Below are positions 23,824 through 64,000 of a stretch of DNA of 64,000 nucleotides, piece after piece. Both the position numbers and the translations under genes were made by a program. How positions within the stretch are numbered: the first letter of the stretch is position 1; the number at the start of each line of letters is the position of its first letter. Source of the stretch: a candidate division WWE3 bacterium RIFCSPHIGHO2_02_FULL_38_14 (GTDB taxonomy: Bacteria > Patescibacteriota > WWE3 > UBA101185 > UBA10185); assembly GCA_001772865.1 (NCBI GenBank), contig MEVD01000003.1:62812-126811 (forward strand). Direction: 5' to 3'. The notes below the pieces were generated by a model. It searched no databases. It was given only the letters and a program-made list of their open reading frames with translations, and had not been told where the DNA came from.

Positions 23824-24771
23824 ATGTATAATACTCTGCCTATTGAGAAATACATGTTCATTCATAATTTTCTGCCTCACCCCGTTCATCGTACGAGGGC
23901 TCGGCTTCTTTCACACAGAGCTCTAATGATGTATAACTTTCTGCTAATTCTGTTTTTTATTATTACTCAGTACGCTCCAAAATTATATCCGGGAGTTTTA
24001 GGTTATGCCTCGGATATCAAAGTCAGCGAATTATTAAATTTAACTAATAAAAAACGTACTTCAGACGGTCTTCCTGCATTAACATTAAATGAAGCTCTTT
24101 CTAAAGCTGCATATAAAAAAGCGCAGGATATGTTTGCCAAGGATTATTGGGCACATGTTTCACCGGATGGTATAGAACCATGGGATTTTATTTTAGCCGA
24201 AAAATATGATTATTCTTATGCAGGTGAAAACTTGGCCAAAAACTTTAATTCATCCAAAGAAGTGGTGGATGCATGGATAAGCTCCCCATCCCATAAAGAT
24301 AATATGATAAGTAAAAATTATGATGAAATAGGTTTTGCTGTAGTGAACGGAACTTTAGATGGGTATAAAACCACATTGGTAGTGCAATTTTTCGGAAAAC
24401 CTAGAACACCTTCGTATTTGGCAGAAGCCGACAAAGAAACCGTCAATGAGAAAATTCTTGAAAGTGTAAGTGAAGAATCGGAAACAGAAATTACAGCAGA
24501 AATTCCAAAACCGGTTGGATCTGAATCGGGTTTAAATTTGCGTACATTATCGTACGAATCTTTTCCAACCTTAATTGATGTTTCAGCTGTGCAGAAAATA
24601 GTAGGATTAACGTTCGGGGGTTTTATTTCGGGTTTGTTGGCGGTTGATATTTGGTATTCAAAAAAGAAATCCATTCCAAAGTTTACCGGGCACACCCTGG
24701 CGCATCTGTCAATTTTAGCAATAGCTGTTATTGGTATCTGGCTGGCTCTATCACCCGGGAAAATATTATAG
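23824..24771 (+). CDS. CAP/SCP (PR-1/YkwD-like) domain protein with membrane anchors
   Basis: Central CAP-domain motifs (YWAHVSPDG, GENLAKNF, SPSHKDNMIS..EIGFAVV), flanked by hydrophobic TM segments. The true start may be an internal Met. Confidence 0.6.
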   Translation: MYNTLPIEKYMFIHNFLPHPVHRTRARLLSHRALMMYNFLLILFFIITQYAPKLYPGVLGYASDIKVSELLNLTNKKRTSDGLPALTLNEALSKAAYKKAQDMFAKDYWAHVSPDGIEPWDFILAEKYDYSYAGENLAKNFNSSKEVVDAWISSPSHKDNMISKNYDEIGFAVVNGTLDGYKTTLVVQFFGKPRTPSYLAEADKETVNEKILESVSEESETEITAEIPKPVGSESGLNLRTLSYESFPTLIDVSAVQKIVGLTFGGFISGLLAVDIWYSKKKSIPKFTGHTLAHLSILAIAVIGIWLALSPGKIL

Positions 24772-46188: not shown

Positions 46189-46455
46189 ATGGCAAGAGGG
46201 CAAAATGAGTTTACAACCGATCCGAAATCAAAAGTGAAAATTAAAGTGATAAATGAGCTTTGTATCAGCGCCGGGACTTGCATTATAAAAGCTCCTGGCA
46301 CATTTGACCTGGATGAAGCCGGTATTGCTTATGTTAAAGACGGCACTTGGGATGATGCTCTTGATATTATAGAAGCTGCCAAATCATGCCCAACCACAGC
46401 GATAATTATTGAAGATATGAATGGTAATCAGATTTGGCCGGCTAAAAAAGAATAA
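46189..46455 (+). CDS. small mono-cluster ferredoxin
   Basis: 88 aa. CISAGTCIIKAP...SCPTTAI Cys pattern of divergent 4Fe-4S/3Fe-4S ferredoxins. Strong SD (aggagg) upstream. Confidence 0.7.
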   Translation: MARGQNEFTTDPKSKVKIKVINELCISAGTCIIKAPGTFDLDEAGIAYVKDGTWDDALDIIEAAKSCPTTAIIIEDMNGNQIWPAKKE

Positions 46456-46456
46456 T

Positions 46457-47443
46457 ATGCATAAATCTACATTTTTCCTTATGAAACCGGATGGAAATAG
46501 TATTGGTAAAGCCAAAGAGTTGAACTTGGATTCTGTTTTTGCGAGTCACAAAAATTTGGATGAAATCGTTATAAAAACGTTGCGGGAAAATTTGAAGTCG
46601 GGTATTGAAATAAATGCGGAGGTTGGAGTATTTGCAGGAAAAGATTTGTGGGATAAATTTCCCGATGTCATTCCGGTTGAAGCAGGCGGAAAAGAACCTG
46701 CGAGAGGATGGTATTACGGAGTTTGTCCTTCACACGAAGGAGTAAGAAATGAATGTTTGCAGAATGTTAAAGCACTTTTAGAAAGAGACTTAAACGGAAT
46801 TTGGCTGGATTTTATAAGATATCCTACCAAATGGGAAGAACCTGAACCATATATATTAGATGTATGCTATTGCGACAGATGTCTGAAAAAATTCAGCGAA
46901 TATTTGGGTGAACCTATAGAAGGAAACACTTTGGAAGATAAAGTGCTACTAATTGACGGAAGTTATTATATTGAATGGATCGAATTTAAAACTGAAATGA
47001 TCACTTCAATGGTAAGAGAAGTCAGGAAGTTGATTGATGATCATAATAGAAATGTTCAAAATGATAAAAAGGTAAAGCTGGGATTTTTCGCTATTCCATG
47101 GCAGGATAAAGAACATAGTGCAGGAATTAAAAGAATAGTTGCGCAGGATTTTGGAGCGTTAAGTACTTTGGTGGATATTTACAGCCCGATGTTATACCAC
47201 AAAATGTGCGGAAAAGAAGTTTCGTGGATAAAGGAAATGGTTAATTATTTTTGGGAAGTAGGTAAACCTCAGCTGCCTTTGATTCAAACCGAGCCCCGCG
47301 AAAGTGAAATAAAAGTTGATGAATTTAAGCAGGCATTGGATTTTGCAGGTGCAAGCCCTTCAACCGGAGTATGTGTATTCTTTTTGGAAGATTTGATGAA
47401 ACAGCCTGAAAAGTTTGATACAGTAAAAGAGTATTTTAAGTGA
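46457..47443 (+). CDS. hypothetical protein, GHL10/DUF187-like (glycoside-hydrolase-like TIM barrel)
   Basis: VCPSHEGVRNECL...LNGIWLDFIRYP resembles the conserved GHL10 block. Start taken at ATG 46457 after the ferredoxin stop. Confidence 0.4.
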   Translation: MHKSTFFLMKPDGNSIGKAKELNLDSVFASHKNLDEIVIKTLRENLKSGIEINAEVGVFAGKDLWDKFPDVIPVEAGGKEPARGWYYGVCPSHEGVRNECLQNVKALLERDLNGIWLDFIRYPTKWEEPEPYILDVCYCDRCLKKFSEYLGEPIEGNTLEDKVLLIDGSYYIEWIEFKTEMITSMVREVRKLIDDHNRNVQNDKKVKLGFFAIPWQDKEHSAGIKRIVAQDFGALSTLVDIYSPMLYHKMCGKEVSWIKEMVNYFWEVGKPQLPLIQTEPRESEIKVDEFKQALDFAGASPSTGVCVFFLEDLMKQPEKFDTVKEYFK

Positions 47444-50109: not shown

Positions 50110-50138
50110 TTGCCACACATAAATTAATCATGTATTAT
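50110..50138 (+). promoter_or_regulatory. candidate promoter TTGCCA-17-TATTAT for the radical SAM gene
   Basis: The -10 element overlaps the annotated ATG at 50137. If this promoter is used, the transcript would begin near the second in-frame ATG (50146), giving a leaderless mRNA. Confidence 0.3.
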
Positions 50139-51828
50139 GACAAATATGTTCAAAATAGCTGTAGGCTATCCGCCCATCGAAACTAACAAAGGTGTTCCGC
50201 TTCTTTCCCAAAACCGACAATTTCAGTATTTCAATGCACCTACTTATATCTATCCAATGGTGCCTGCATATGCTGCATCACAAGCTAAAGCTAAAGGATA
50301 CAATGTTGTATGGGTAGACGGTATCGCGGCTAAACAAACTTATTCACAATGGCTTGAACAGCTTGATCGGGAAAAACCCGACCTTTTAATGATTGAAACA
50401 AAATCGCCAGTAGTAAAACAACACTGGAGAATAATAACTGATCTCAAACAAAAATTCCCGAATATGCTCATAACTTTAGTAGGTGATCACGTTACTTATG
50501 CTCCAAAAGAAACAATGGACAACAGTCCGGTTGATTATATAATTACTGGTGGTGATTACGATTTTATGCTTTCAGATTTGGCCAATTCAATAACCAAAGG
50601 TGATAAACTTGTGGGTGGTATTTGGGGGCGCAAAAGCGACCAAAAAGTTTCTTTGGGAGAATTAATTAAGTACGAAGATTCTCAAGTGAACGGAAATGAA
50701 GCATATTGGGTTTCCGGACCATTAAAACAAACTCACAATCTAGACGAACTGCCGTTTGTTGACCGCGACCTCACTCATTGGGAGTACTATGCCTATGAAA
50801 ACGGAAATTATAAGTACACTCCCGCCACATATATGTACTCCGGTAAGGACTGCTGGTGGAACAGATGTACTTTCTGTGTGTGGGATCATACGATAAATGC
50901 GATTGGAACTTATAGAAGATTCACTCCCGAAAGATTGTTTGCCGAGGTTAAACATGTAGTTGACAAATACGGTGTCCGCGAAATATTTGATGATGCCGGA
51001 ACTCTTTTTGTAGGTCCTCCTCTTAAAAAATTCTGTAACATGCTAATTGAATCCGGCTACAATAAAAAAGTGATTTACGGCTGCAATATGAGATTAAACG
51101 CTTTAACACAGGAGTATTATGATTTAATGGGTAAGGCTAATTTCAGGTTTATATTGTATGGTATGGAATCCGGTAACCAAAAAACTCTGGACATGCTGGA
51201 TAAAGGATTAAAAATTCACCAAATAGAAGAAGGAGTAAGAATGGCTAAAAAAGCCGGCCTCGAACCACATTTAACAATTATGCTTGGGTATCCATGGGAA
51301 TCTGAGGAAGACGCCAAAAATACTATTGCCTTATCAAAAAGACTTTTCAAAGAGGGTTATGTAGATACTATGCAGGCTACAATTGTAATTCCATATCCTG
51401 GAACGCCTCTTTACAAACAATGTATAGAAAACAACTGGTTATTGGTTGATCCTACCGACTACGAAGCCTTTGATATGAGAGGTCCAGTTATGAAGATACC
51501 TTTTGCACATGAAAGACTTTATGAACTTACACAGGAACTATATTCTTCGTTTTTTACGCCTCAGTATGCTTTGAGAAAGCTTAAGGCGGTACGCAAATGG
51601 GATGATATTAAGTTTTTAGTTTATTCAGCGAAGAAACTTATGGGTCATCTGCTTGACTTTGATGAAGAGCAGACCAAGGTAAGTATGTCTTCTCCTACGT
51701 TCTGGATAAACGCCTTTAAGAGTATGTTTACTCATTTGAAAGAGAAAAAAGAAGATAAAACTATTGAGGTAACAATTAAAGAAAGTGCTGAAGCAGAAGT
51801 TAAAGCTAAATCCGAAGTTAAAATATAA
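50137..51828 (+). CDS. cobalamin (B12)-binding domain / radical SAM enzyme (class B rSAM-like, candidate C-methyltransferase)
   Basis: 563 aa. N-terminal Rossmann-like B12-binding domain. rSAM core with Cys triad DCWWNRCTFC (Cx4Cx2C spacing, not Cx3Cx2C). GMESGNQ SAM-binding region. Confidence 0.75.
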   Translation: MTNMFKIAVGYPPIETNKGVPLLSQNRQFQYFNAPTYIYPMVPAYAASQAKAKGYNVVWVDGIAAKQTYSQWLEQLDREKPDLLMIETKSPVVKQHWRIITDLKQKFPNMLITLVGDHVTYAPKETMDNSPVDYIITGGDYDFMLSDLANSITKGDKLVGGIWGRKSDQKVSLGELIKYEDSQVNGNEAYWVSGPLKQTHNLDELPFVDRDLTHWEYYAYENGNYKYTPATYMYSGKDCWWNRCTFCVWDHTINAIGTYRRFTPERLFAEVKHVVDKYGVREIFDDAGTLFVGPPLKKFCNMLIESGYNKKVIYGCNMRLNALTQEYYDLMGKANFRFILYGMESGNQKTLDMLDKGLKIHQIEEGVRMAKKAGLEPHLTIMLGYPWESEEDAKNTIALSKRLFKEGYVDTMQATIVIPYPGTPLYKQCIENNWLLVDPTDYEAFDMRGPVMKIPFAHERLYELTQELYSSFFTPQYALRKLKAVRKWDDIKFLVYSAKKLMGHLLDFDEEQTKVSMSSPTFWINAFKSMFTHLKEKKEDKTIEVTIKESAEAEVKAKSEVKI

Positions 51829-51869: not shown

Positions 51870-54164
51870 ATGCCGCGAAAATTACTTCCTTATGCCGCAA
51901 TAATTGCTTTTATAGGCTTGGTATATATTAGAAATATTCTCCCGGTAAAAGGATTTCAAACCTTCATTTTCGGGGATTCTGCTATATATGCCCTGCAAGT
52001 TACAGGGTTGGCTAAAAACTTTTCGTCTGTTTTCGGATATAAGGATAATATTTTATTTTGGAATCCTTCTTATTTATCTGTAGGTATTCCTACAGCTTCG
52101 GTTATTGATTTTGGGGTTTTTTATCCGATTAACATTTTTATTGCCTTTATAGCTTTCTTAATCAAGAACCTTTTTATTACCTTTGACCTTTATACATTTT
52201 CGATATTTGCTCACCTGGTTTTTGGCAGCACTTTTGTTTATAAAATATTGAAAGACTTTTGGAAACTTAATCCGAAAATCGCTTTAATAGGCGCCTTTAT
52301 CTGGTCATTTAACGGTTATAATACTGAGTTTATGTCGGCCTCAGCAATTTTTCTTGCAGCTTCGTATCTTCCTGCATGTTTTTATTTCACCCTAAAATTG
52401 TTGGAATCAAACAAGTTTAAGTATTTTCTTATTTATCATTTGCTTCTTGCTTTTAGCTTTTTGTCCGGTTATGTCATTGTTCCTGTGATTATATTATTAT
52501 TTTGTTCTTTTTATTATATTTTTGCACAGTCTGCCTTAAGCAAGAAGAAAAAAGCAATAAAGTTGCTAATAGGATTACTTCTAATAACACTACCTTTAAT
52601 TGCTCCATTATATTTTTCTACATATATTAACTTTCCTTATAGTTTGAGGTCATTAAATTTAGATTTGGAAAGTTTTTTATTTAATTCGGCAAAAATTAGA
52701 AATTTAAAAGAATCAGTGTTTCCTACAAACACACCGTTTAATGACTTAAGTAAAACTAACCAAGTATTTTTATATTTTAGTCTTACTGGTCTTTTGTTGC
52801 TGATTTTGAATCGTAGTTATAGAAATATATTTTCCGATAATAGAAACAAGTTGCTGTTAATTTTTGGATTTTTAGGTTTATTAATTGCAATTGGTAAATA
52901 CGGACTGATTTCTTACTTGTTGTATTATATTCCCGGCATCGGGCTTTTTAGAAGATTGTCTGTTTTTTCTTTAGTTCCGTTATTTACTTATTCTATATTA
53001 ATTCCACAGATATTAAGAAATATATATGAACTTAAGAACTTTAAATTTACTTCTGTATTTAAAGTAATTCTCATTGTTAGTGTTTTTATCTTTTTTATTA
53101 CTTCTTATTTATATTTAACAAGACAGCCTTTAGAGATTGAAGTATCTTCTTTTTATACGTCATTTATTACAGGATTCGCTGTTCTTGTAATTGTGGCAGT
53201 TTCTTACAAACTAAGACGGCTTAATAATAACTATTTATTATACGGGCTAATATTGGCACTGTTTATTGAAGCATTGATAAATATATCCTCAAAAGCATTT
53301 ATAAATTCAAAAATTAATCCTAAAGACATGTTTATACCCAATTCTCTTATGACAAGTTTAATGAATATGGTAGAAGAAGGTGAAAGAGTTAATGTTTTGC
53401 ATACTCATTACAACTACAGCACGAGTCATATAAATTTGGATCAGACAGCCGGATATGTTTCACTCGCAAGCCTTTATGGTGGAAAAATAAATGAATATCT
53501 TGAGTCTGCCGATTCGGAGAATAAAAATTTGAAGGATCTGCTCGGAGTTAAATATGTAATAAATAAAGTCAGTAAAACTGATTCGAACCTAAAAATAATT
53601 GAAAAAGAAGATTCATCAGAATTTTACGAATTCAACTATTTAAACCTCGAATGGGAAAAAGAGAAATCCCAGGATGTTTATGCACTATATTCGCGGGAAA
53701 CCAATTTGCCACGCTTGTATGTTGCTTCACAGGTGGAAAAATCAGATCAATCAGTTCTATTATTGGATAAAATACGCAGTTCTAAAGAAAATGCAGTTGT
53801 TTTTATTGATGAGGAAGTGCCTGCTGATATAACCAGATCTTCAGAGGTTAAAATACTGGAAATTAAAAGAAATTATCTTCGGGCTGAAGTAAAAAGCGGT
53901 GGAAGTGTATTTTTAGCAAATTCAACGGGGTATTATCCCGGGTGGAAAGTAAAAATTAACGGAGAATGGCATAATCCCATTCAAACTAATTGGTTTATGC
54001 AGGGGATATTTTTAAATTCCGGATTTAATGTTGTGGAATTTTACTATATACCATATGGTATTATATTGGGGTCGATTTATTTATTTACAGCTTTGTTTAT
54101 TTGGATTTTATATTTTGCTTTAAGGGTAAGACTAAATGCATTTATTAAAAAGAAGTCTGACTAG
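51870..54164 (+). CDS. large polytopic membrane protein (YfhO/GT-C-like)
   Basis: 764 aa. About 13 N-terminal TM helices, a large extracytoplasmic domain, and a C-terminal TM anchor. Confidence 0.4.
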   Translation: MPRKLLPYAAIIAFIGLVYIRNILPVKGFQTFIFGDSAIYALQVTGLAKNFSSVFGYKDNILFWNPSYLSVGIPTASVIDFGVFYPINIFIAFIAFLIKNLFITFDLYTFSIFAHLVFGSTFVYKILKDFWKLNPKIALIGAFIWSFNGYNTEFMSASAIFLAASYLPACFYFTLKLLESNKFKYFLIYHLLLAFSFLSGYVIVPVIILLFCSFYYIFAQSALSKKKKAIKLLIGLLLITLPLIAPLYFSTYINFPYSLRSLNLDLESFLFNSAKIRNLKESVFPTNTPFNDLSKTNQVFLYFSLTGLLLLILNRSYRNIFSDNRNKLLLIFGFLGLLIAIGKYGLISYLLYYIPGIGLFRRLSVFSLVPLFTYSILIPQILRNIYELKNFKFTSVFKVILIVSVFIFFITSYLYLTRQPLEIEVSSFYTSFITGFAVLVIVAVSYKLRRLNNNYLLYGLILALFIEALINISSKAFINSKINPKDMFIPNSLMTSLMNMVEEGERVNVLHTHYNYSTSHINLDQTAGYVSLASLYGGKINEYLESADSENKNLKDLLGVKYVINKVSKTDSNLKIIEKEDSSEFYEFNYLNLEWEKEKSQDVYALYSRETNLPRLYVASQVEKSDQSVLLLDKIRSSKENAVVFIDEEVPADITRSSEVKILEIKRNYLRAEVKSGGSVFLANSTGYYPGWKVKINGEWHNPIQTNWFMQGIFLNSGFNVVEFYYIPYGIILGSIYLFTALFIWILYFALRVRLNAFIKKKSD

Positions 54165-55371
54165 GAAAGAAAAAAAGTTAGTTGCGTTTTTATCTATACT
54201 ATTGGTACTGTTTTCGTCTCTTTATATATTCTTAATTGAACCTGTTATCACAATTTATAAATACGCAAATAAAATTCCGGCTAAAATAGCCTTTGTAGAA
54301 CGAGCGGTGAGATCGCAGGATTTCAGGTTTCTGCCCTTTGAAATTGAATATTTAAAGGAAGATTTTGTAGTAATAGACCAGGCGGCAACCCGTCTTTCGG
54401 TTTTCAAGCCGGTTCCGTTTATTGGTTCATATGTGTCGGATGTAAAAGTTTTCACTTCGGTAGCTGTAGATATGATTGATACTACCTACGGCATGCTTTT
54501 ATATATGGATGATGTAATTCCGAATCTTTCATTTACAGGATGGAGTGACAATTCTGTCTCGCAGGAAGTAGTAATAAACCAACTCAGCTCCTTTTTAACT
54601 GAATACCTGCCGTTGTATAAAGAAAGAATTAAAACAATTAATGAGAGGGTAATGACAGTTGATACTTCAAAATATCCGGAAGTAATAAAAGGTATAGAAG
54701 TCAGGTCAAGCCTTGAACAGATAAAAGGATTAACAATCAATTTTACAAATTCATTTGATGTACTTGGTGAATTAGTCGGTGATTTTCCCAGTTTAACGGG
54801 AACATCAGTTCCGAAGAATTATTTATTTCTGCTTTCTTATGGATCCAAACCCCAAACTGAAAAATTTGTGGCGTATGCGGTGTTCAGAGTTAACGGTACA
54901 AATGTAAGTATAGTTAGAACAGGCGATGTCGGTCTACTGGGACAGCAATTAACTAAATTTATAGAACCGGGTAAAGAACTTGAAGCTATATGGGAAAAGG
55001 CTTTAAGTGATGTTGGACTGGAAGGAATAGTTGTCATTAACGATCAGGTTATTAAATCCATTGTTGGGGTGATCGGAAAAGTCAATGCTAATGAACTTGG
55101 TGATATTACCGCCGAAAATGTTCAGGAGAACTTGCTGAAATTTTATGAAAATGCTGGAAAAAGGGATCTGCAGAGTAAAAAAGAGAAAAGTTCGGTGGGT
55201 ACCCTGCTATTTAACTTAATTAAAGAAGCCATTTCAACCGCAAGTTTGCACAAAAAAGCCGAGCTTATAAAGGCATTAATTAATGAAAGAAATAACGGAA
55301 ATATTTCATTTTATTTTGAAAACGAAAAACTTCAGAATTTGGTAGAGTTTAAGAATTTTGAATATAATTGA
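54136..55371 (+). CDS. membrane-anchored extracytoplasmic protein (DUF4012-like)
   Basis: 411 aa. Single N-terminal TM, then a soluble domain. Overlaps the upstream gene by 29 nt. Confidence 0.35.
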   Translation: MHLLKRSLTRKEKKLVAFLSILLVLFSSLYIFLIEPVITIYKYANKIPAKIAFVERAVRSQDFRFLPFEIEYLKEDFVVIDQAATRLSVFKPVPFIGSYVSDVKVFTSVAVDMIDTTYGMLLYMDDVIPNLSFTGWSDNSVSQEVVINQLSSFLTEYLPLYKERIKTINERVMTVDTSKYPEVIKGIEVRSSLEQIKGLTINFTNSFDVLGELVGDFPSLTGTSVPKNYLFLLSYGSKPQTEKFVAYAVFRVNGTNVSIVRTGDVGLLGQQLTKFIEPGKELEAIWEKALSDVGLEGIVVINDQVIKSIVGVIGKVNANELGDITAENVQENLLKFYENAGKRDLQSKKEKSSVGTLLFNLIKEAISTASLHKKAELIKALINERNNGNISFYFENEKLQNLVEFKNFEYN

Positions 55372-55421: not shown

Positions 55422-56387
55422 ATGTACAACCAGTTTTGGAAAAATAGATCTGTATTAGTGACCGGTGGTACTGGTCTTCTAGGTTCGGAGTTAGTTAAAC
55501 AGTTGGTTGAGAGTGAGGCTAATGTAGTAACTGCGGTTAGGGACAACGTTTCTAAATCCCGTTTTTTTATAGAAAATCTTCATGAGAAGGTCACGGTTGT
55601 TCATGGAGATGTTATTGATTTTCCATTTTTAGAAAGAGTAATTGGTGAATATGAAATTGACACTGTTTTCCATTTGGCGGCTCAAACAATTGTAAGGATT
55701 GCAAATAACTCACCGTTGTCTACATTTGAAAGTAACATGCGAGGCACCTGGAATGTTCTTGAAGCCGCAAGACTGCACTCTAAAAAAATCAGATCAGTAG
55801 TAGTGGCTTCATCTGATAAAGCATATGGAGAGAGTAAAACCCTTCCATATGACGAAGAGACCCCGCTAAAAGGAAAATACCCATATGACGTTTCAAAAAC
55901 ATGCACGGATTTAATTGCTCAAAGTTACTGGTATACCTTTAAAATGCCGGTAAATATTACAAGGTGCGGAAATCTATTCGGTCCGGGAGATTTAAATTTC
56001 AGTAGAATTATTCCTGGTACGATACTTTCGGTTAAAAGAAATGAACCTCCAATAATAAGAAGCGACGGAAAATTTATTAGAAATTATTTCTATACCAAAG
56101 ACGCGGCTTCGGGATATTTGACTATTTCTGAAAATGTTGAAAATCATGCGGGCGAAGCATTTAATTTGGGAACTGAAGAACGATTTTCGGTAATTGATAT
56201 TACAAAGATGATTTTAAAATTAATGGGTTCAAGCCTTGAACCTGTGATTAAAAATGAGGCGACAAATGAAATATACGAGCAGTATTTAAATATTAATAAA
56301 GCAAAAGAAAAGCTGAGGTGGACTGCTAAATACTCTACTGAAGAAGCCTTAAAAGAAACTATCAACTGGTACACAAAATATGTCTAA
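55422..56387 (+). CDS. rfbG: CDP-glucose 4,6-dehydratase-like NAD-dependent dehydratase
   Basis: N-terminal FWKNRSVLVTGGTGLLGS, HLAAQTIVR, SSDKAYGE, and the YPYDVSKTC catalytic YxxxK region parallel RfbG/DdhB. Confidence 0.7.
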   Translation: MYNQFWKNRSVLVTGGTGLLGSELVKQLVESEANVVTAVRDNVSKSRFFIENLHEKVTVVHGDVIDFPFLERVIGEYEIDTVFHLAAQTIVRIANNSPLSTFESNMRGTWNVLEAARLHSKKIRSVVVASSDKAYGESKTLPYDEETPLKGKYPYDVSKTCTDLIAQSYWYTFKMPVNITRCGNLFGPGDLNFSRIIPGTILSVKRNEPPIIRSDGKFIRNYFYTKDAASGYLTISENVENHAGEAFNLGTEERFSVIDITKMILKLMGSSLEPVIKNEATNEIYEQYLNINKAKEKLRWTAKYSTEEALKETINWYTKYV

Positions 56388-57714
56388 TCATCTAAGAGAA
56401 GAAATTCTTTCTCTTGTTAAAAAATACCATGACGAGAACTTTAATAAGGTATTAATAGCGGGTGAAAGTTATATACCTCCGTCAGGGAAAGTTTTCGGTT
56501 TTGAGGAAGTGCGTAATCTTGTAGATGCATCCTTAGACTTCTGGCTTACTGAGGGAAGATTCAACGAACAGTTTGAAAAAGAACTGGCGGAATTTATAAG
56601 TGTGAATTTCTGTGCTACTGTTAATTCCGGATCATCAGCGAATTTGCTGGCATTTTATGCCTTAACATCAAGGGAATTCGGCTCGAGGGCAATTAAAAAA
56701 GGCGACGAAATTATTGAAGTTGCTACGTGTTTTCCAACAACTTTAAACCCTGTTTTACAGTTTGGATGTATACCTGTATTAGTTGATGTAGAAATCCCAG
56801 CTTATAATGCTTCTGCTAAAAATGTTTTAAGTGCTGTTACAGACAAAACAAAGGCGATATTTCTTGCCCATACTTTAGGTAATCCTTACGAAGTGGAAGA
56901 AATTGCCAAATTCTGCAAAGAAAAAGGTATTTGGCTGATTGAGGACTGCTGTGACGCTTTAGGAGCTGAATATGGCGGCAAAAGAGTCGGGTCTTTTGGA
57001 GATGTGGCAACTTTGAGTTTTTATCCCGCTCATCAAATTACCTGCGGTGAAGGTGGCGCTGTTTTAACCAACAATGCTCTGCTAAATAAAATGGTAAGGT
57101 CTTTTAGAGACTGGGGCCGCGATTGCTGGTGCGCACCGGGGAACGAGAATACATGCGGTATTAGATTTAACTGGCAGTTGGGAACATTACCTCGGGGGTA
57201 TGACCACAAATACATTTATAGTCATATCGGTTTCAATTTAAAAATGACTGATTTGCAGGCATCTGTAGGTTTAGCTCAAATGCAAAGGGTTGGGGGATTC
57301 ATAAAAAAAAGAAGAGAAAATCATAATCTTCTAATTGAATATTTAAAAAAATATGAAGATTATTTTATTATGCCCGAGGCTACTGAAAATAGTAATCCGT
57401 CATGGTTCGGTTTTGTAATTACGATAAAAGACGGAGCACCGTTTACGAGGACAGATTTGATCAGATATTTAGAAAATCATAAAATAGGTACGCGGCTACT
57501 TTTTGCCGGTAATATAACAAGACAGCCCGCCTATAAAGATATTGAATTTATAGTACACGATAAGTTAGTTAATGCCGATAAAGTAATGAATGACACTTTT
57601 TGGATAGGTTGCTATCCGGCAATTAATGAAGATATTATAAAATATGTTAGTAAAACTTTTGAAGAATTTATATCACTTTCCGAGAAAGGAATTATAAATG
57701 CCAAAGCCAATTAA
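56380..57714 (+). CDS. rfbH: CDP-4-keto-6-deoxy-D-glucose-3-dehydrase (E1; RfbH/DdhC family, DegT-type PMP enzyme)
   Basis: 444 aa. SGSSANLLA, CFPTTLNP, AHTLGNP, IEDCCDALG, FYPAHQITCGEGGAV, FRDWGRDCWCAPG..NTCG (E1 Cys cluster), HKYIYSHIGFNLKMTD. A His occupies the usual PLP-Lys position, as in E1. Confidence 0.8.
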   Translation: MSNHLREEILSLVKKYHDENFNKVLIAGESYIPPSGKVFGFEEVRNLVDASLDFWLTEGRFNEQFEKELAEFISVNFCATVNSGSSANLLAFYALTSREFGSRAIKKGDEIIEVATCFPTTLNPVLQFGCIPVLVDVEIPAYNASAKNVLSAVTDKTKAIFLAHTLGNPYEVEEIAKFCKEKGIWLIEDCCDALGAEYGGKRVGSFGDVATLSFYPAHQITCGEGGAVLTNNALLNKMVRSFRDWGRDCWCAPGNENTCGIRFNWQLGTLPRGYDHKYIYSHIGFNLKMTDLQASVGLAQMQRVGGFIKKRRENHNLLIEYLKKYEDYFIMPEATENSNPSWFGFVITIKDGAPFTRTDLIRYLENHKIGTRLLFAGNITRQPAYKDIEFIVHDKLVNADKVMNDTFWIGCYPAINEDIIKYVSKTFEEFISLSEKGIINAKAN

Positions 57715-57748
57715 GACAAAGGTTTCTAAAGCTATTACAAAATCTAAA

Positions 57749-58471
57749 ATGGCAGAGATGCCCGTAGTTATATTTTGCGGAGGGATGGGAAGCAGAATTA
57801 GAGAAGAAACCATAGATAAACCCAAGCCTATGATAAATGTAGGTGGAAAGCCAATATTATGGCATATAATGAAAATGTACAATCATCAAGGTTATAATAA
57901 CTTTATTTTAACTTTGGGTTACAAAGGTGACTATATTAGGGATTTTTTAAAAAGTACCCAGGGGAAGATTTTTGAACCTTTTAATATAACTTTAGCTGAA
58001 ACCGGTGTGGATACACCTACGGGCGGGCGGCTTCTTAGATCCGCGGATTTTATTAAGACAGACACATTTTTATGCACATATGGGGACGGATTCAGTGATG
58101 TGGATTTAAATAAGGTCTTGGATTTTCATAATAACAGGGATATGGTGGCTACATTGACTAGTGTCTGTATACCTCATAAATTCGGAATAATATCATTTTC
58201 CAAGGCAGGACAATTGAAAAATTATAAAAAAGGACATTTAATGAAGGAACCCATTAACGCCGGATTTTTTGTTTTCACTAAAAAATATTTTGATTACTTA
58301 ACCGACGACATGATGATTGAGGACCCGTTTAATGCCGTTGCAAAAGATAAAAAATTCGGAGTCTATTTTCATGACGGATATTTTGGTGCTGTAGATACAT
58401 ATAAAGATTTAGAAGATTTAAACGACTTGTGGAATAATAAAAATCCACCTTGGAAGGTTTGGGAGGACTAA
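57749..58471 (+). CDS. rfbF: glucose-1-phosphate cytidylyltransferase
   Basis: MPVVIFCGGMGSRIREETIDKPKPMINVGGKPILWHIMKMY closely parallels the RfbF/DdhA N-terminus. Start taken at the internal Met (57749). Confidence 0.8.
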   Translation: MAEMPVVIFCGGMGSRIREETIDKPKPMINVGGKPILWHIMKMYNHQGYNNFILTLGYKGDYIRDFLKSTQGKIFEPFNITLAETGVDTPTGGRLLRSADFIKTDTFLCTYGDGFSDVDLNKVLDFHNNRDMVATLTSVCIPHKFGIISFSKAGQLKNYKKGHLMKEPINAGFFVFTKKYFDYLTDDMMIEDPFNAVAKDKKFGVYFHDGYFGAVDTYKDLEDLNDLWNNKNPPWKVWED

Positions 58472-58474
58472 TCA

Positions 58475-59488
58475 GTGAAAAATTCTCATCTCTCGGTTTC
58501 TATTGTAATGCCTACTTTAAACTCAATGAGAACTTTGGATGCCTGTTTGAAATCTATTCGTAGTCAGAATTATTCTCAGGAAAAAATAGAGATTTTAATT
58601 GTCGACGGTGGTTCAACAGATGCTACTAAACAGACAGCAGAAAAGTATAATTGCAGATTTATAGAAGGTGAATATAGAGATAATCAAGAACCGAGAAAAG
58701 GAATCGGTCTTTTAAATGCTAAAAATGATTTGGTTGCATATATTGATTCAGATAACATCCTTCCGGATAAAGAATGGATAAACCAATCTATAAAACCATT
58801 TTCAGAGGTTTCAGACTTAACCGGCACTGAAACTTTGAGGTATGGTTTAATGCCGGGTTTTGCCTATTTTAACAGATATTGTGCTTTGATTGGAGCAAAT
58901 GATCCGGTAGCTTTATATTTAGGGAAAAGCGAAAAACTGTCGTGGCTTTATAATGAGTGGCAAATAACTCCAGTAAAAGAAAAACACGACGGATATTTTA
59001 TAGTCGAGTTTAATGAGAGTAATATGCCTACCTTGGGTGGAAACGGATATTTTTCATGGAGGGAATTGATGCTCAAGTCCAATTGTCAGCCCGACCAGTA
59101 TTTTCATATTGACGTTGTAATGGATCTGGTGAAACTCGGGTATACTAAGTTTGCTATGGTAGAAAATGAAATTTACCATGATACCGCTGCAAGTTTGAAT
59201 AAATTAACTTCAAGAAGAAAAACATATTTTAAAACCCACAATCCAATGTATGGGAACAGAAGATATTTGTTGTTTAATCCTGCTAAAAAGAGTGATGTGT
59301 ACAATCTTTTTCTATTCGTTGTTTATTCTGCAACTTTTATTCAGCCTATTTTGTTTTCATTGAGAGGCTTTTTCAAAAAAAGGGATTTAGCTTGGTTTTT
59401 GCACCCTGCGGTATGTTTTTCCTTTATGTGGGCTTATTCTGTAGCTACAATTTCTCTTATTTCAAATCGGTTGAATAAAAATAAGTAA
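58475..59488 (+). CDS. family 2 glycosyltransferase with C-terminal TM segments
   Basis: SIVMPTLNS, LIVDGGSTDAT, IDSDN. Confidence 0.75.
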   Translation: MKNSHLSVSIVMPTLNSMRTLDACLKSIRSQNYSQEKIEILIVDGGSTDATKQTAEKYNCRFIEGEYRDNQEPRKGIGLLNAKNDLVAYIDSDNILPDKEWINQSIKPFSEVSDLTGTETLRYGLMPGFAYFNRYCALIGANDPVALYLGKSEKLSWLYNEWQITPVKEKHDGYFIVEFNESNMPTLGGNGYFSWRELMLKSNCQPDQYFHIDVVMDLVKLGYTKFAMVENEIYHDTAASLNKLTSRRKTYFKTHNPMYGNRRYLLFNPAKKSDVYNLFLFVVYSATFIQPILFSLRGFFKKRDLAWFLHPAVCFSFMWAYSVATISLISNRLNKNK

Positions 59489-60628
59489 CTATTCAGGTTT
59501 ATTCAATTTAGATAAATTCCCTTTTATAACCCCCTTAATGTCATATATTTTAGCCATATCAAGGCATTTTGATTGAAGTGATATCAAATTTTCCTTTGAG
59601 ATAAATATTTTCAGGACTTCGTCATCTGGCATTTTGTTATCAGCCTTTAATTGTAAAGCAATACCTTCATTAATAATTTCTTTATTTAGAGAAGGTTCGA
59701 GAGATATTATAAAAGGCAACCCACACATCATATATTCCCATATTTTTATAGGTTCAATATATTTAGTTGAGCCGAAGTCTTTATCATAAACCGCTAATCC
59801 CAGATCGCATTGAGAAACGAGTCTGCTTGACGCGTCTTGCCCGTTAACATCAAAAATCTGGGTGTTTTTTAGATTGTTTTTTTCAATTAATTGCCGGAAT
59901 AAATCGACTTTATTGGATGGAATAAACCAGAACTCCATTTCCGGCCTGATTTTCTGAATTTTTAAACAGATGTCTACTATATCATGGATCTGTTTATCGG
60001 TTAAAATGCTTCCAGTCCAAACTACGCGCTTGCCTGTTCTGGAATTTTGATTTGACTTGTAGTAAGTATCATTAAATATAAAGGAATTAGGTGTATATAT
60101 TGAATCACTATTATAATGTTTCTTTTTGTAATCAGCCAAGGATTCACATACAACCCAGGTTATATCAGATTTTAATGAGGCAATTCTGTCAAAATATTCG
60201 TATATTTTTTGCATAAATTTAATTGAAAATCTGTTTTCGCTAAAATCTACGCTGTAAAATACCAGTTTAAAATTCAGCAGAAACTTTAGAAAAACTGCCG
60301 GAACCGTGGATAATGGGTCAATACCGATTACAACTGAATTTCTGCTATCTAATGTTAAAAGCCTGATCAATAATGAAAATGTTAAAATAAAATCTGTTAA
60401 ATATTTTATTGGGGTGATTCTTCCGAATACTTTTGGAATTTTGATCTTTATTTGTTTATCGTGTTTGCCGTAAAAAACGGGATTCTCATAGCCGTTTAAA
60501 GGTATCTCTAGCACTAAAACGTCTAGGTTGTTCTGAACTAATCCATTGATTATAGAAAAGTAAGGGCCGGAAACTTTTTTATTATTTTTATAAAGTACGT
60601 GAGTAATTATTATGTATTTATCTTCCAT
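59489..60628 (-). CDS. GT-B glycosyltransferase (GT4/GT1-like)
   Basis: 379 aa. C-terminal Rossmann half with the EPIKIWEYMMCGLPFI region. Only minus-strand gene in this part of the island. Confidence 0.5.
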   Translation of the reverse strand: MEDKYIIITHVLYKNNKKVSGPYFSIINGLVQNNLDVLVLEIPLNGYENPVFYGKHDKQIKIKIPKVFGRITPIKYLTDFILTFSLLIRLLTLDSRNSVVIGIDPLSTVPAVFLKFLLNFKLVFYSVDFSENRFSIKFMQKIYEYFDRIASLKSDITWVVCESLADYKKKHYNSDSIYTPNSFIFNDTYYKSNQNSRTGKRVVWTGSILTDKQIHDIVDICLKIQKIRPEMEFWFIPSNKVDLFRQLIEKNNLKNTQIFDVNGQDASSRLVSQCDLGLAVYDKDFGSTKYIEPIKIWEYMMCGLPFIISLEPSLNKEIINEGIALQLKADNKMPDDEVLKIFISKENLISLQSKCLDMAKIYDIKGVIKGNLSKLNKPE

Positions 60629-60709
60629 TTCTATGTTATTATACAGCAGACATTGGGATTAACATCGGTGCCTGTTAAATATCATGCCTGATGGAATTAA
60701 ATTAGATAT

Positions 60710-61606
60710 ATGCTTGAAAAAATAAAGTGGTTTATAAATGCTTCGATTTCTTTAGACTTAGGGTTTTGGAAAGTTTCAGTCTGGAGTGTTGATAAAAAAC
60801 TGGAGTTTATTGTATTAAAATATCTCGAAATCTTCCTCAATTTATCACGAGTAAAAGTTTTTAATCTTGGAGATAGTAGCTTAAAGTTGTTCGGTAAAGA
60901 AATATTTTATGATACTGTTTTCGGTATCGCCGGGTATCAAAGCATGCTTTCGAGGCACCAGAAAATGTTAAAATTCGCAAAAATCGAAAAAGTGTATAAC
61001 ATTATTGATATAGGTGCGAATGTAGGCTTTTTTTCACTGGTATGCAGAGATTTATATAAAGATGCCGAAGTATTTGCTGTTGAGCCTGTTGTTAGCGCTT
61101 ATAAATGTTTAAAAAAGAACTTAAATAATCCTAAAGATCATATATTCCAACTGGCAATATCCGATAAAAATGGAAAAGAAAGAATGGAATTCACCGAAGA
61201 TAATACAGCAGTAAGTAGTGTCATAAGAAATGAAACTGGTTTTAATAAAATTAACAATAATGGTAAAAACACACAATTTGTGGAGGTTGAAGCAAAAACA
61301 TTGGATACTTTTGTAAATGAAAATAAACTGGAAATAATAGACATTTTGAAAGTTGATACTGAATCGTTTGAATATAATGTGCTTAAATCCGCATACAATA
61401 CACTTAAAAATACCAGATACCTTCACTTAGAAATAAGCATAGAAAATAATTCAAACTATACGTTTACCCAGATTAATAGTTTACTATTTTCTAATGACTT
61501 CAATTTTCAGCTGCTTTGTTTTAGGAATTTTACAGATAGAGGAGATGGCCCGATTCCGGTTGGGGATTTTTTATTTAAAAATATTATGATGGAGTTTTAT
61601 GGATAA
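60710..61606 (+). CDS. FkbM-family methyltransferase
   Basis: IIDIGANVGFFSLV ... FAVEP is the FkbM domain signature. Confidence 0.7.
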   Translation: MLEKIKWFINASISLDLGFWKVSVWSVDKKLEFIVLKYLEIFLNLSRVKVFNLGDSSLKLFGKEIFYDTVFGIAGYQSMLSRHQKMLKFAKIEKVYNIIDIGANVGFFSLVCRDLYKDAEVFAVEPVVSAYKCLKKNLNNPKDHIFQLAISDKNGKERMEFTEDNTAVSSVIRNETGFNKINNNGKNTQFVEVEAKTLDTFVNENKLEIIDILKVDTESFEYNVLKSAYNTLKNTRYLHLEISIENNSNYTFTQINSLLFSNDFNFQLLCFRNFTDRGDGPIPVGDFLFKNIMMEFYG

Positions 61607-63785
61607 CTCTAATAACAAAAACTTGGCATTTTTAATATTAGCATTTTTACTTGGAATGGCGTTAACTCTGCCTGTATTTACAAAAGTTCCACCACATGCA
61701 GACGAACATCAGTTTTATTTTAATGCGTTCAGTATTATGGGTGGAGAAGCCCTTCATAATTATGTTCATGTAGCTTTCACTGAATATCTGCTGGCTGCTT
61801 TTTTTACGGTAGTTAATATGTTTACAGTTTCAGGTGTTAATTTTCCACAGGCCGGTCCAACTATGGTAACGGTTTATTTTGCCAGATATTTTGGATTGAT
61901 GCTTTATATTTTGGCATTTATTTTCTGCGTTATTGTACTCCAAAAAGGAGAAAGGAAAATTAAGCTTAGAAGCGTTATTTTTACTTTTTTATATTTCGGT
62001 TCAATCGGAGTGTTTGAAAGGTTTTTCAGAGTTAATTCCGATTCAATGCTAGTTCTAATATTTCTGAATTATCTGATACTTTCATTTTGGTTTCATAAGA
62101 AAAAGGCTTCTGTTTTTAAGTTTTTTATTCTGAACTTGGTATTTTTATTTATTGCTACTTTTACAAATCTGAAATCACTTTATTTAATATTTCCAATGTT
62201 CATTCTTAATGTGGTTTGTCCTTTCTTTTTCTATAACAGAACTGAAAAACCCGTTGAAAATGGAATAAACTTGGGAAGAAACCTACCGAAAATATACCTT
62301 CTGATTTTCTACTTTGTCGGGCTCATCTTGGGAGTAATAGTCTTATGGACGGTATTTATTCCGCAGCCTCACAATACCAGAAATTTCTGGTATTCAGTCA
62401 AAAAGACTATTGTTCATGGTACTCAGTTTGATTTCGATTTTCCTGGGCAGTCATATGGAAGCTGGAAAGTATATATTTACGACCTGTTTTCAGAATATAC
62501 AGGATTTGGCGTCTTATTGGCACTTATATTATTATTTTTTGTTTATAGACGGATCGGTAAATTAAGGATTCAGCAAATATTTGATGCAATAAAGGAACAA
62601 GTTGGTTTTCATATTCTGAGTAGTGGCGAATTAATAAAATCGACCGAATTAATTCTATTATTAAGTCTTTTTGCATACTACATAGGTGTGTCTATGGCGG
62701 TCGTACACTGGTCCAGATGGGGAATACCGTTGGGAATCATTACATTAATGCTTTTTTCAGTATGGGGAGAGTATTTTTTGGAAAGAATTTTTGTAAACTA
62801 TAAATCAGCAAATCTGCCTTTAGCCAGAATTATAGTCGTTCTTCTTTTTTTAACTTTGGTGTTAAGAGTTGCCATGACAATAGATATTTACAAAACAAAT
62901 TATCCGGAATTGGATGGATGGAAACAGACATATAAGGATGTAGAAAAGTATTTAGAACAAGAAAATATACCACCCGCTGACTGGATGAAATATGCCACAT
63001 GGTTTACAGGTTATACACAAAATATAAAAACTATGTCGCTTGAGCAGATTGCCAATGTGGAAAATTCAGATATAAAATATGTTTTTGTTCCCTATTGGAA
63101 TATCGGATTTTTGCATACTAATAAGAATATTGACTTAGGTACCCACAACCAGAGAGCTATTATAGACAAATACGCGGAAAGCATTATATATAGAACTCCG
63201 TCATTAACTTCCAGTTATAGTCATATTTCAAAATTTATAGCCTGGAGAGTTTTCGGTCTGTCATATACCCCTGAATTTGAGGGGATGACGGAACCGCAAT
63301 ATGCTATTGTTAAGCTCAAGGAAAATCCCGGTGAAATAAATCTGAATTATGAAGTGGGATTTAACGATATGTCTCATTACGACTCCCCATATTCCTTGAT
63401 TTTTAACATGAAAAATCTTACTGATAGCTATATGTTTGCGCCGTGCTATTCATTTCCGGATACTGTTGATGAAAAAGAGGGGAAATCGGTACTGCCTCCA
63501 AAAGAATTCGGCATAGGTGGAAGAACTTCAGGATTATACTGTCATAGCATAAGGTTCAGGCTTTTGTTTAAAGGAAGTTATCGAATACGAGTAGAGAACT
63601 TGCCTGATGATTCTGATGGGCTGCAAAGGGTGTATTCAAATATGGCTGGATATAAATGGGACTCTGAAACAGATACTCTATCATTTGAGAATCCTACAAC
63701 AATGATTCCGGGTGAATTCGGAGTTGCCACTAAGGAAAAGTATCTTCCTGACCTGAAATTCCGGGTTTTTTATAAGCATGATTGA
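61599..63785 (+). CDS. large membrane protein, polytopic N-terminus plus soluble C-terminal domain (possible GT-C)
   Basis: 728 aa. At least 10 TM helices in the first 420 aa, then a hydrophilic domain. Confidence 0.4.
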   Translation: MDNSNNKNLAFLILAFLLGMALTLPVFTKVPPHADEHQFYFNAFSIMGGEALHNYVHVAFTEYLLAAFFTVVNMFTVSGVNFPQAGPTMVTVYFARYFGLMLYILAFIFCVIVLQKGERKIKLRSVIFTFLYFGSIGVFERFFRVNSDSMLVLIFLNYLILSFWFHKKKASVFKFFILNLVFLFIATFTNLKSLYLIFPMFILNVVCPFFFYNRTEKPVENGINLGRNLPKIYLLIFYFVGLILGVIVLWTVFIPQPHNTRNFWYSVKKTIVHGTQFDFDFPGQSYGSWKVYIYDLFSEYTGFGVLLALILLFFVYRRIGKLRIQQIFDAIKEQVGFHILSSGELIKSTELILLLSLFAYYIGVSMAVVHWSRWGIPLGIITLMLFSVWGEYFLERIFVNYKSANLPLARIIVVLLFLTLVLRVAMTIDIYKTNYPELDGWKQTYKDVEKYLEQENIPPADWMKYATWFTGYTQNIKTMSLEQIANVENSDIKYVFVPYWNIGFLHTNKNIDLGTHNQRAIIDKYAESIIYRTPSLTSSYSHISKFIAWRVFGLSYTPEFEGMTEPQYAIVKLKENPGEINLNYEVGFNDMSHYDSPYSLIFNMKNLTDSYMFAPCYSFPDTVDEKEGKSVLPPKEFGIGGRTSGLYCHSIRFRLLFKGSYRIRVENLPDDSDGLQRVYSNMAGYKWDSETDTLSFENPTTMIPGEFGVATKEKYLPDLKFRVFYKHD

Positions 63786-63832
63786 TATGTATAATTAATT
63801 TAAACGCAGGTTTCATTTTTTACGGAGGTATT

Positions 63833-64000
63833 ATGAAATATTTTATAACTGGTGCTTCGGGTATGCTGGGAACAACCTTGTACAAATTATTTACAAAGGC
63901 TGGTCATCAGGTAGTTTCTACTGATTTAAATCCTTTAGATAAGTGGACTATTAAATTAGACGTTCGTGATAAAGATAAAGTTCACTCGATGATAAAAGAA
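63833..64000 (+). CDS. NAD(P)-dependent sugar-nucleotide reductase (RmlD-like extended SDR), 5' partial at window end
   Basis: MKYFITGASGMLG Rossmann motif. Sits downstream of the CDP-dideoxyhexose genes; truncated by the window edge. Confidence 0.5.
   Translation, partial: MKYFITGASGMLGTTLYKLFTKAGHQVVSTDLNPLDKWTIKLDVRDKDKVHSMIKE

Follow-up and report, generated by a model that had tools for sequence, protein, structure and literature searches.

Putative 3,6-dideoxy sugar genes with an E1/RfbH-type dehydrase and no linked E3 reductase in the glycan locus of a WWE3 bacterium

The glycan-biosynthesis locus of candidate division WWE3 bacterium RIFCSPHIGHO2_02_FULL_38_14, a member of the candidate phyla radiation (CPR), carries three adjacent genes whose products resemble RfbG, RfbH and RfbF. 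We analyzed these genes in a 64,000-nt stretch of DNA (hereafter the window; positions 62,812 to 126,811 of contig MEVD01000003.1, assembly GCA_001772865.1) and read the sequence past its end from the parent contig, using a 22-kb stretch (L002) that reaches 10 kb downstream of the window, for a total of 74 kb. The window sequence was also found as an exact match on several public contigs, including the 163-kb MEVE01000008.1 (GCA_001772885.1). Our reading is that the operon probably makes a 4-keto-3,6-dideoxyhexose activated by a nucleoside diphosphate (NDP), most likely cytidine diphosphate (CDP), with the electrons for C-3 deoxygenation supplied by a general ferredoxin or flavodoxin and its reductase chain. 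The gene set is an uncharacterised instance of a well-known 3,6-dideoxy sugar pathway in an understudied lineage.

This reading is carried by the 444-residue protein encoded at 56380-57714 (+ strand), which is already annotated as RfbH in GenBank. It scored 683.5 bits against the NCBIfam model NF011936 (cutoff 423), and was the sole core protein above its own curated family threshold. Aligned with the E1 enzyme of Yersinia pseudotuberculosis (PDB 3BCX), it showed 61% identity (559 bits, residues 3-433 on 4-435). His218, within the motif FYPAHQIT, occupies the position of the Schiff-base lysine of the DegT family; its counterpart in 3BCX is His220, and in the H220K mutant 3BB8 it is the introduced lysine. 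Cys191, Cys249, Cys251, and Cys259 align with the [2Fe-2S] cysteines of E1 (C...C-x-C-x7-C), an unusual motif that has been described previously (PMC8987622). Both His218 and all four cluster cysteines were invariant across an alignment of 10 diverse homologues. The first-pass annotation of this DNA had proposed an E1 3-dehydrase dependent on pyridoxamine 5′-phosphate (PMP) and a [2Fe-2S] cluster, to be recognized by a histidine in place of the usual lysine, and the alignment confirmed this, placing an E1-type module for C-3 deoxygenation in a CPR organism. A generic DegT aminotransferase was rejected for this protein, as His218 replaces the lysine that would bind pyridoxal 5′-phosphate. Also rejected was a reductase-independent 3-dehydratase of the ColD type, given the presence of the four cysteines and a score of only 163 bits against ColD vs. 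559 against E1. Judged by its residues and scores, the protein is unambiguously recognizable as an E1/RfbH-type C-3 deoxygenation enzyme.

The gene directly upstream (55422-56387, + strand) encodes a short, 321-residue extended short-chain dehydrogenase/reductase (SDR) with GxxGxxG and YxxxK motifs that resembles the NDP-glucose 4,6-dehydratase RfbG. Its best NCBIfam match was TIGR02622 (CDP-glucose 4,6-dehydratase) at 195.5 bits, below the cutoff of 278.45, and the model for the deoxythymidine diphosphate (dTDP)-glucose dehydratase scored 182.6; among PDB entries, dTDP enzymes (129 bits) and CDP enzymes (125 bits) were about equally close, and the top match was a dTDP enzyme. At the active site, SSDKAY (Asp-Lys) corresponds to TSDKCY in 1WVG, the CDP-glucose 4,6-dehydratase of Salmonella, whereas dTDP-glucose dehydratases have STDEVY (Asp-Glu) at this position, and the N-terminal motif is also of the CDP-glucose dehydratase type. 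The papers on the 1WVG and 1RKX structures are said to treat Asp-Lys as the mark of CDP enzymes, and Asp-Glu as that of dTDP and guanosine diphosphate (GDP) enzymes. In the 80 RfbH loci from other organisms described below, 49 SDRs adjacent to rfbH carried the Asp-Lys motif, and Asp-Glu was seen only far from rfbH.

Downstream of rfbH, at 57698-58471 (+ strand, with an alternative start at 57758), lies a gene for a 257-residue RfbF-like glucose-1-phosphate nucleotidyltransferase, probably a cytidylyltransferase, whose GenBank version has 237 residues. It matched TIGR02623 at 217.3 bits in two stretches, below the cutoff of 300.25, and has lost about 20 residues relative to RfbF; its best PDB match was RfbF itself (1TZF, 185 bits), with the next family at 77 bits. 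We read the nucleotidyltransferase and the SDR as divergent, shortened relatives of RfbF and RfbG. The score of the SDR is ambiguous, but since its Asp-Lys motif is that of CDP enzymes and RfbF is the nearest match of its neighbor, CDP is most likely the nucleotide used by the module. The triad of RfbF, RfbG, and RfbH originally named for this region thus stands as to adjacency and as to RfbH, while the best matches of the other two members fall below the equivalog cutoffs, making them RfbF-like and RfbG-like. The order is also G-H-F, and not F-G-H as the naming had implied. These three genes are followed by one for a 337-residue glycosyltransferase of family 2 (GT2) at 58475-59488 (+ strand; Pfam Glycos_transf_2, 68.8 bits). 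Because the four genes overlap (by 8 nt, then by 17 nt) or nearly abut (a 3-nt gap before the GT2 gene), 55422-59488 looks like one translationally coupled operon.

In Yersinia and Salmonella, the E1 enzyme has a partner reductase, E3 (DdhD). As a reference for E3, we used a 329-residue open reading frame (ORF) that occupies the place of ddhD in Yersinia aleksiciae and has an N-terminal plant-type ferredoxin domain and a ferredoxin reductase-like (FNR) module of the BenC/MmoC class; a protein was counted as E3 if an N-terminal plant-type Fer2 domain preceded FAD_binding_6 and NAD_binding_1. A profile of nine DdhD-type proteins, all encoded at the ddhD position, gave no match better than E = 0.89 in six-frame translations of the whole window and L002, and motif and phmmer searches likewise found no E3 in the window or downstream. 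As a control, the profile detected two FNR-like proteins lacking Fer2, at 64 and 73 bits. From the empty search and the working control, we concluded that E3 is absent from the 55 kb upstream and the 10 kb downstream of rfbH, which upholds the earlier remark that it is missing from the window, and extends it, in that no ddhD follows immediately beyond.

The same remark had presented the missing E3 as noteworthy, and this view did not survive comparison with other loci. The RfbH family is very large and highly conserved, with at least 8000 matches at E < 1e-50. We surveyed the best 80 RfbH loci, on contigs chosen as one genome per species, from Pseudomonadota, Bacteroidota, Acidobacteriota, Chloroflexota, Planctomycetota, and Actinomycetota, as well as Deinococcales, a Methanoregula, and a WWE3. 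Gene calling recovered rfbH in 76 of these loci, and 11 of the 76 had an E3-type gene in the flanks. When counting was restricted to the 49 loci flanked by 8 kb or more on each side, E3 was nearby in 8, and 41 were without it. The positive loci came mainly from Yersinia, Pseudomonas, Aeromonas, Francisella, Corallincola, and two Bacteroidota, and wherever E3 was present it lay within ~3 kb of rfbH. For RfbH-type enzymes, an E3 encoded in the cluster is thus exceptional and occurs mostly in Gammaproteobacteria; because 41 of 49 fully flanked loci do without it, a linked E3 does not define the RfbH family in practice. We also clustered the 1,386 ORFs neighboring rfbH in search of an alternative reductase, and found no conserved redox partner in the E3-less loci; the recurrent neighbors were RfbF, SDRs, GT2s, a YerE-like thiamine diphosphate (ThDP) enzyme, and split transketolases. 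There is a biochemical precedent for such an arrangement in the E1 homologue SpnQ, for which ferredoxin/ferredoxin reductase or flavodoxin/flavodoxin reductase pairs can take the place of E3 (reviewed in PMC8987622).

Two side observations came from this survey. The YerE-like ThDP enzyme occurred in 31 of the 80 loci and a split transketolase in 11-14 of 80, mostly without E3, and given these frequencies, yersiniose-type sugars (branched-chain 3,6-dideoxy sugars) may be widespread across phyla. Separately, a metagenome-assembled genome (MAG) of Acidaminobacteraceae encodes a 232-residue FNR-like protein without a ferredoxin domain (L069 8030-8728), with its start at the rfbH stop codon, which may be a truncated E3.

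A candidate for the reductase that acts after E1 lies at the window end. The ORF that begins at 63833 (+ strand) has only 168 nt inside the window (63833-64000); on the parent contig it encodes a 656-residue protein (L002 12235-14205). An RmlD-like reductase had been noted at this point, and although cut by the window end, it is real: the N-terminal 300 residues matched RmlD_sub_bind at 229 bits, with a Rossmann motif visible at the start, and scored marginally above the cutoff of TIGR01214 (224.4 vs. 224.05). Residues 320-590 form a GT2 domain (77 bits) with weak resemblance to rhamnosyltransferases. This fusion is the sole candidate 4-ketoreductase in the 74 kb examined, and an RmlD-like SDR 42% identical to it occurs in a Burkholderiales RfbH locus. 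The RmlD-like domain is probably the C-4 reductase of the dideoxyhexose branch, and its fusion to a GT2 domain suggests that the freshly reduced NDP-sugar would be handed directly to its own transferase.

Taken in pathway order, the RfbF-like enzyme would activate glucose-1-phosphate, and the short RfbG-like SDR would then carry out the 4,6-dehydration through its Asp-Lys pair. E1/RfbH, as the PMP- and [2Fe-2S]-dependent NDP-4-keto-6-deoxyglucose 3-dehydrase, would form a PMP-sugar Schiff base, with His218 abstracting a proton and the 3-hydroxyl being expelled, and the resulting glucoseen intermediate would take up two electrons, one at a time, via the enzyme's own [2Fe-2S] cluster. The RmlD-like domain of the fusion would probably reduce C-4, and neighboring enzymes of the GT2, GT-B, and GT-C types would attach the finished sugar to a surface glycan. 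With no dedicated E3 encoded in the module, E1 is most likely supplied with electrons by a ferredoxin or flavodoxin of general cellular use and its reductase chain, a source that is the most economical one because most RfbH loci are without E3 and because SpnQ provides a precedent.

Several points weigh against this pathway. Neither the RfbF-like nor the RfbG-like protein reaches its equivalog cutoff, and by overall similarity the dehydratase is as close to dTDP as to CDP enzymes, which leaves the nucleotide uncertain. No 5-epimerase is visible, and the RmlD-GT2 fusion may belong to a rhamnose branch instead, given that its RmlD domain barely exceeds the rmlD cutoff and that the GT2 part is weakly rhamnosyltransferase-like; we saw no rmlA, rmlB, or rmlC in the 74 kb. 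In addition, an unlinked E3 may be encoded elsewhere in the genome, beyond the window and the 10 kb that follow it.

As to the electron source, the first-pass annotation had pointed to a nearby ferredoxin. This gene is real: 46189-46455 (+ strand) encodes an 88-residue single-cluster ferredoxin (Pfam Fer4_13 and Fer4_15) with three cysteines in the pattern CxxAxxC...CP. Ferredoxin motifs with three cysteines point to a [3Fe-4S] cluster, and such a cluster is predicted here. It could be imagined that this protein, charged by an unlinked reductase, is a dedicated stand-in for the iron-sulfur domain of E3 that feeds E1 directly. Its gene shares the glycan locus with rfbH, from which it is 9 kb distant on the upstream side, and a homologous ferredoxin is found 6-9 kb upstream of rfbH in four of the six RfbH loci of the CPR clade (the window, L090, L087, and L177); ferredoxins are able to serve E1-type enzymes, as seen with SpnQ (PMC8987622), and in L087 an FNR-like flavoprotein adjoins the ferredoxin. 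However, in all four loci the ferredoxin gene stands beside a B12-radical S-adenosylmethionine (SAM) gene homologous to 50137-51828 of the window, and never beside rfbH, and no ferredoxin is encoded within 10 kb of rfbH in two other CPR loci, L088 (Saccharimonadales) and L089. We therefore examined 80 metagenome loci centered on the radical-SAM family of 50137-51828 (L091-L170). The ferredoxin was present in 31 of them, in 26 cases within ~100 bp of the radical-SAM gene and on the same strand, while RfbH was present in only 3; RfbH was missing from 11 of the 13 loci that carry the ferredoxin and have full 10-kb flanks. The FNR-like protein is likewise adjacent to the radical-SAM gene in loci without RfbH. 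Because the pairing recurs where there is no RfbH, we concluded that the ferredoxin belongs genetically with the radical-SAM enzyme. It could also pass electrons to E1, though no feature marks it for that task, and we regard its role as a specific replacement for E3 as unlikely.

We consider it slightly more doubtful that a canonical E3, a [2Fe-2S] flavoprotein of the DdhD/AscD type, is encoded outside the 74 kb read. This locus is found on contigs as long as 527 kb, and the WWE3 RfbH is 61% identical to a Yersinia enzyme that works with E3. Against this stand the close linkage to rfbH of the E3 genes in our survey, the E3-less majority of RfbH loci, and the finding that the only FNR-type proteins encountered here in CPR genomes are Fer2-less, 216-219 residues long, and attached to radical-SAM genes. 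It is very unlikely, in our view, that the module is not a CDP-3,6-dideoxyhexose module at all, whether because the sugar is carried on another nucleotide such as dTDP or because RfbH acts as a reductase-free, ColD-like dehydratase or aminotransferase. The first of these versions could draw on the sub-cutoff scores of the RfbF-like and RfbG-like proteins, on the dTDP enzyme that is the top PDB match of the dehydratase, and on the RmlD-like character of the adjacent reductase, RmlD being a family of the dTDP pathway, but the Asp-Lys pair and N-terminal motif of the dehydratase are those of CDP-glucose dehydratases, and RfbF is by far the nearest nucleotidyltransferase. The second version has a parallel in the transaminase activity of SpnQ without a reductase (PMC8987622); it is countered by the much higher score of RfbH against E1 than against ColD, and by the four cluster cysteines, which ColD does not have. 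A general cellular donor for an E1 enzyme in a CDP pathway thus remains the reading we prefer.

The B12-binding radical-SAM enzyme (50137-51828, + strand; Pfam Radical_SAM and B12-binding) is HpnJ/BchE-like, although at 154.7 bits against TIGR03471 (cutoff 577) it falls far below any equivalog cutoff. It is part of the same glycan locus and may act on a sugar or a lipid carrier, and together with the three-cysteine ferredoxin it forms a conserved gene pair in CPR glycan loci. In other CPR lineages, without RfbH, an FNR-like flavoprotein of 216-219 residues is encoded directly upstream of a related radical-SAM gene; examples of this family, which numbers over 1,300 proteins at E <= 1e-10 and combines FAD_binding_6 and NAD_binding_1 with no Fe-S domain, are L171 5001-5660 and L174 5001-5654. 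A further member, L087 1530-2186, lies side by side with the ferredoxin in that locus. This flavoprotein looks like an alternative or additional dedicated reductant of the radical-SAM enzyme. A more speculative scheme, which we hold to be quite improbable, is that in WWE3 and its CPR relatives the ferredoxin serves both the radical-SAM enzyme and E1, allowing a minimal form of C-3 deoxygenation free of E3, after which the radical-SAM enzyme would modify (for example, C-methylate) the 3,6-dideoxy-4-keto sugar into an undescribed sugar. Overlapping the end of the ferredoxin gene is one for a 340-residue protein (46421-47443) with a weak GH42-like match only, which we tested as a possible reductase and for which no flavin or NAD family match was found. 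A homologue 48% identical occurs at the equivalent ferredoxin-X-radical-SAM position in L177, and the family was present in 4 of the 80 radical-SAM loci.

The closest known counterpart of the module is the ddhA-ddhB-ddhC-ddhD pathway of Y. pseudotuberculosis and Salmonella enterica (also rfbF-rfbG-rfbH-rfbI, or ascA-D), in which the same three enzyme families are encoded side by side, with the same catalytic histidine and [2Fe-2S] cysteines in E1 and the same Asp-Lys pair in the dehydratase. The WWE3 locus differs in lacking ddhD, in its gene order, in the length of its dehydratase (321 residues vs. ~357), and in the ~20-residue deletion of its transferase. Its host also differs, being a monoderm-like CPR organism without lipopolysaccharide, and its candidate 4-reductase is fused to a GT2 domain, unlike the stand-alone enzymes of the Prt, Abe, and AscF type. 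SpnQ of the spinosyn forosamine pathway is similar in being a PMP/[2Fe-2S] enzyme of the E1 type with no E3 in its cluster; however, it is a TDP-4-keto-2,6-dideoxyglucose 3-dehydrase of an actinomycete natural-product pathway, whereas the WWE3 protein is closely orthologous to RfbH and is encoded together with RfbF-like and RfbG-like enzymes. ColD, the GDP-4-keto-6-deoxymannose 3-dehydratase, shares the fold and the His-for-Lys substitution, but has no Fe-S cluster and needs no reductase (PMC8987622). The RmlD-GT2 fusion, for its part, recalls RmlD together with a GT2 rhamnosyltransferase of the WbbL type, in that the rmlD cutoff is reached and the GT2 half weakly resembles that subfamily, although here both domains are part of one protein and the genes for the remaining Rml enzymes were not seen.

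The closest relatives of the WWE3 RfbH, among the matches listed, form a small CPR group with 65-86% identity, all others being at ~60%. This group shares the order SDR-RfbH-RfbF-GT2, as well as a convergent GT-B-like gene. Orthologues of the GT2 occupy the equivalent position in the CPR loci L087 (52% identity) and L089, and the GT-B-like family, which in the window is a 379-residue, weakly GT1-like protein at 59489-60628 (- strand; Pfam Glyco_trans_1_4, E = 4e-4), is found at the equivalent minus-strand position in L007, L089, and L090. The Saccharimonadales homologue (L088, 57% identity) has the canonical F-G-H order, and its locus was probably acquired separately. Dideoxyhexose synthesis in a CPR-like organism had been put forward as noteworthy, but GenBank already carries the RfbH annotation in several WWE3 genomes, a Patescibacteria group MAG, and a Saccharimonadales MAG. 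A literature search found no paper linking dideoxyhexoses with CPR. Dideoxyhexose genes in CPR are thus recurrent and already annotated, and have never been studied.

The module would mean that a CPR bacterium with a reduced genome bears the cost of making a 3,6-dideoxy sugar, presumably destined for its cell surface, and that surface matters for attachment and recognition. The rarity of linked E3 genes means that annotation pipelines and pathway models demanding E3 understate the spread of the 3,6-dideoxy route. Neither point overturns current understanding.

The operon sits within a long glycan-biosynthesis locus. The window starts with rpoB/rpoC, a ribosomal protein operon, secY, adk, and map, and the glycan locus begins near 25 kb and extends past the window end. 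The latter contains many GT2 and GT4 glycosyltransferases, two Wzx-like flippases, several methyltransferases, and membrane proteins of the PMT_2, YfhO, and DUF2079 types. Past the operon and the convergent GT-B-like gene, 60710-61606 (+ strand) encodes a 298-residue methyltransferase of the FkbM family (TIGR01444, 102.6 bits vs. a cutoff of 37.7), which also matches Pfam Methyltransf_21 and V_cholerae_RfbT and is likely a sugar O-methylase. It is followed by a hydrophobic 728-residue protein (61599-63785, + strand), with many hydrophobic stretches in its translation and zero Pfam or NCBIfam matches, which from its context alone is possibly a glycan polymerase or transferase. Farther downstream on the parent contig are genes for a 1179-residue AftD-like GT-C protein, small membrane proteins, a classical SDR, and proteins of unknown family. 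Between map and the start of the glycan locus lies a gene for a protein with a CAP (cysteine-rich secretory protein) domain (23824-24771). Directly 5′ of the dehydratase gene, 54136-55371 encodes a 411-residue protein with a faint DUF4012 match only, and clear DUF4012 proteins are encoded at the equivalent position in the CPR loci L089, L090, and L177.

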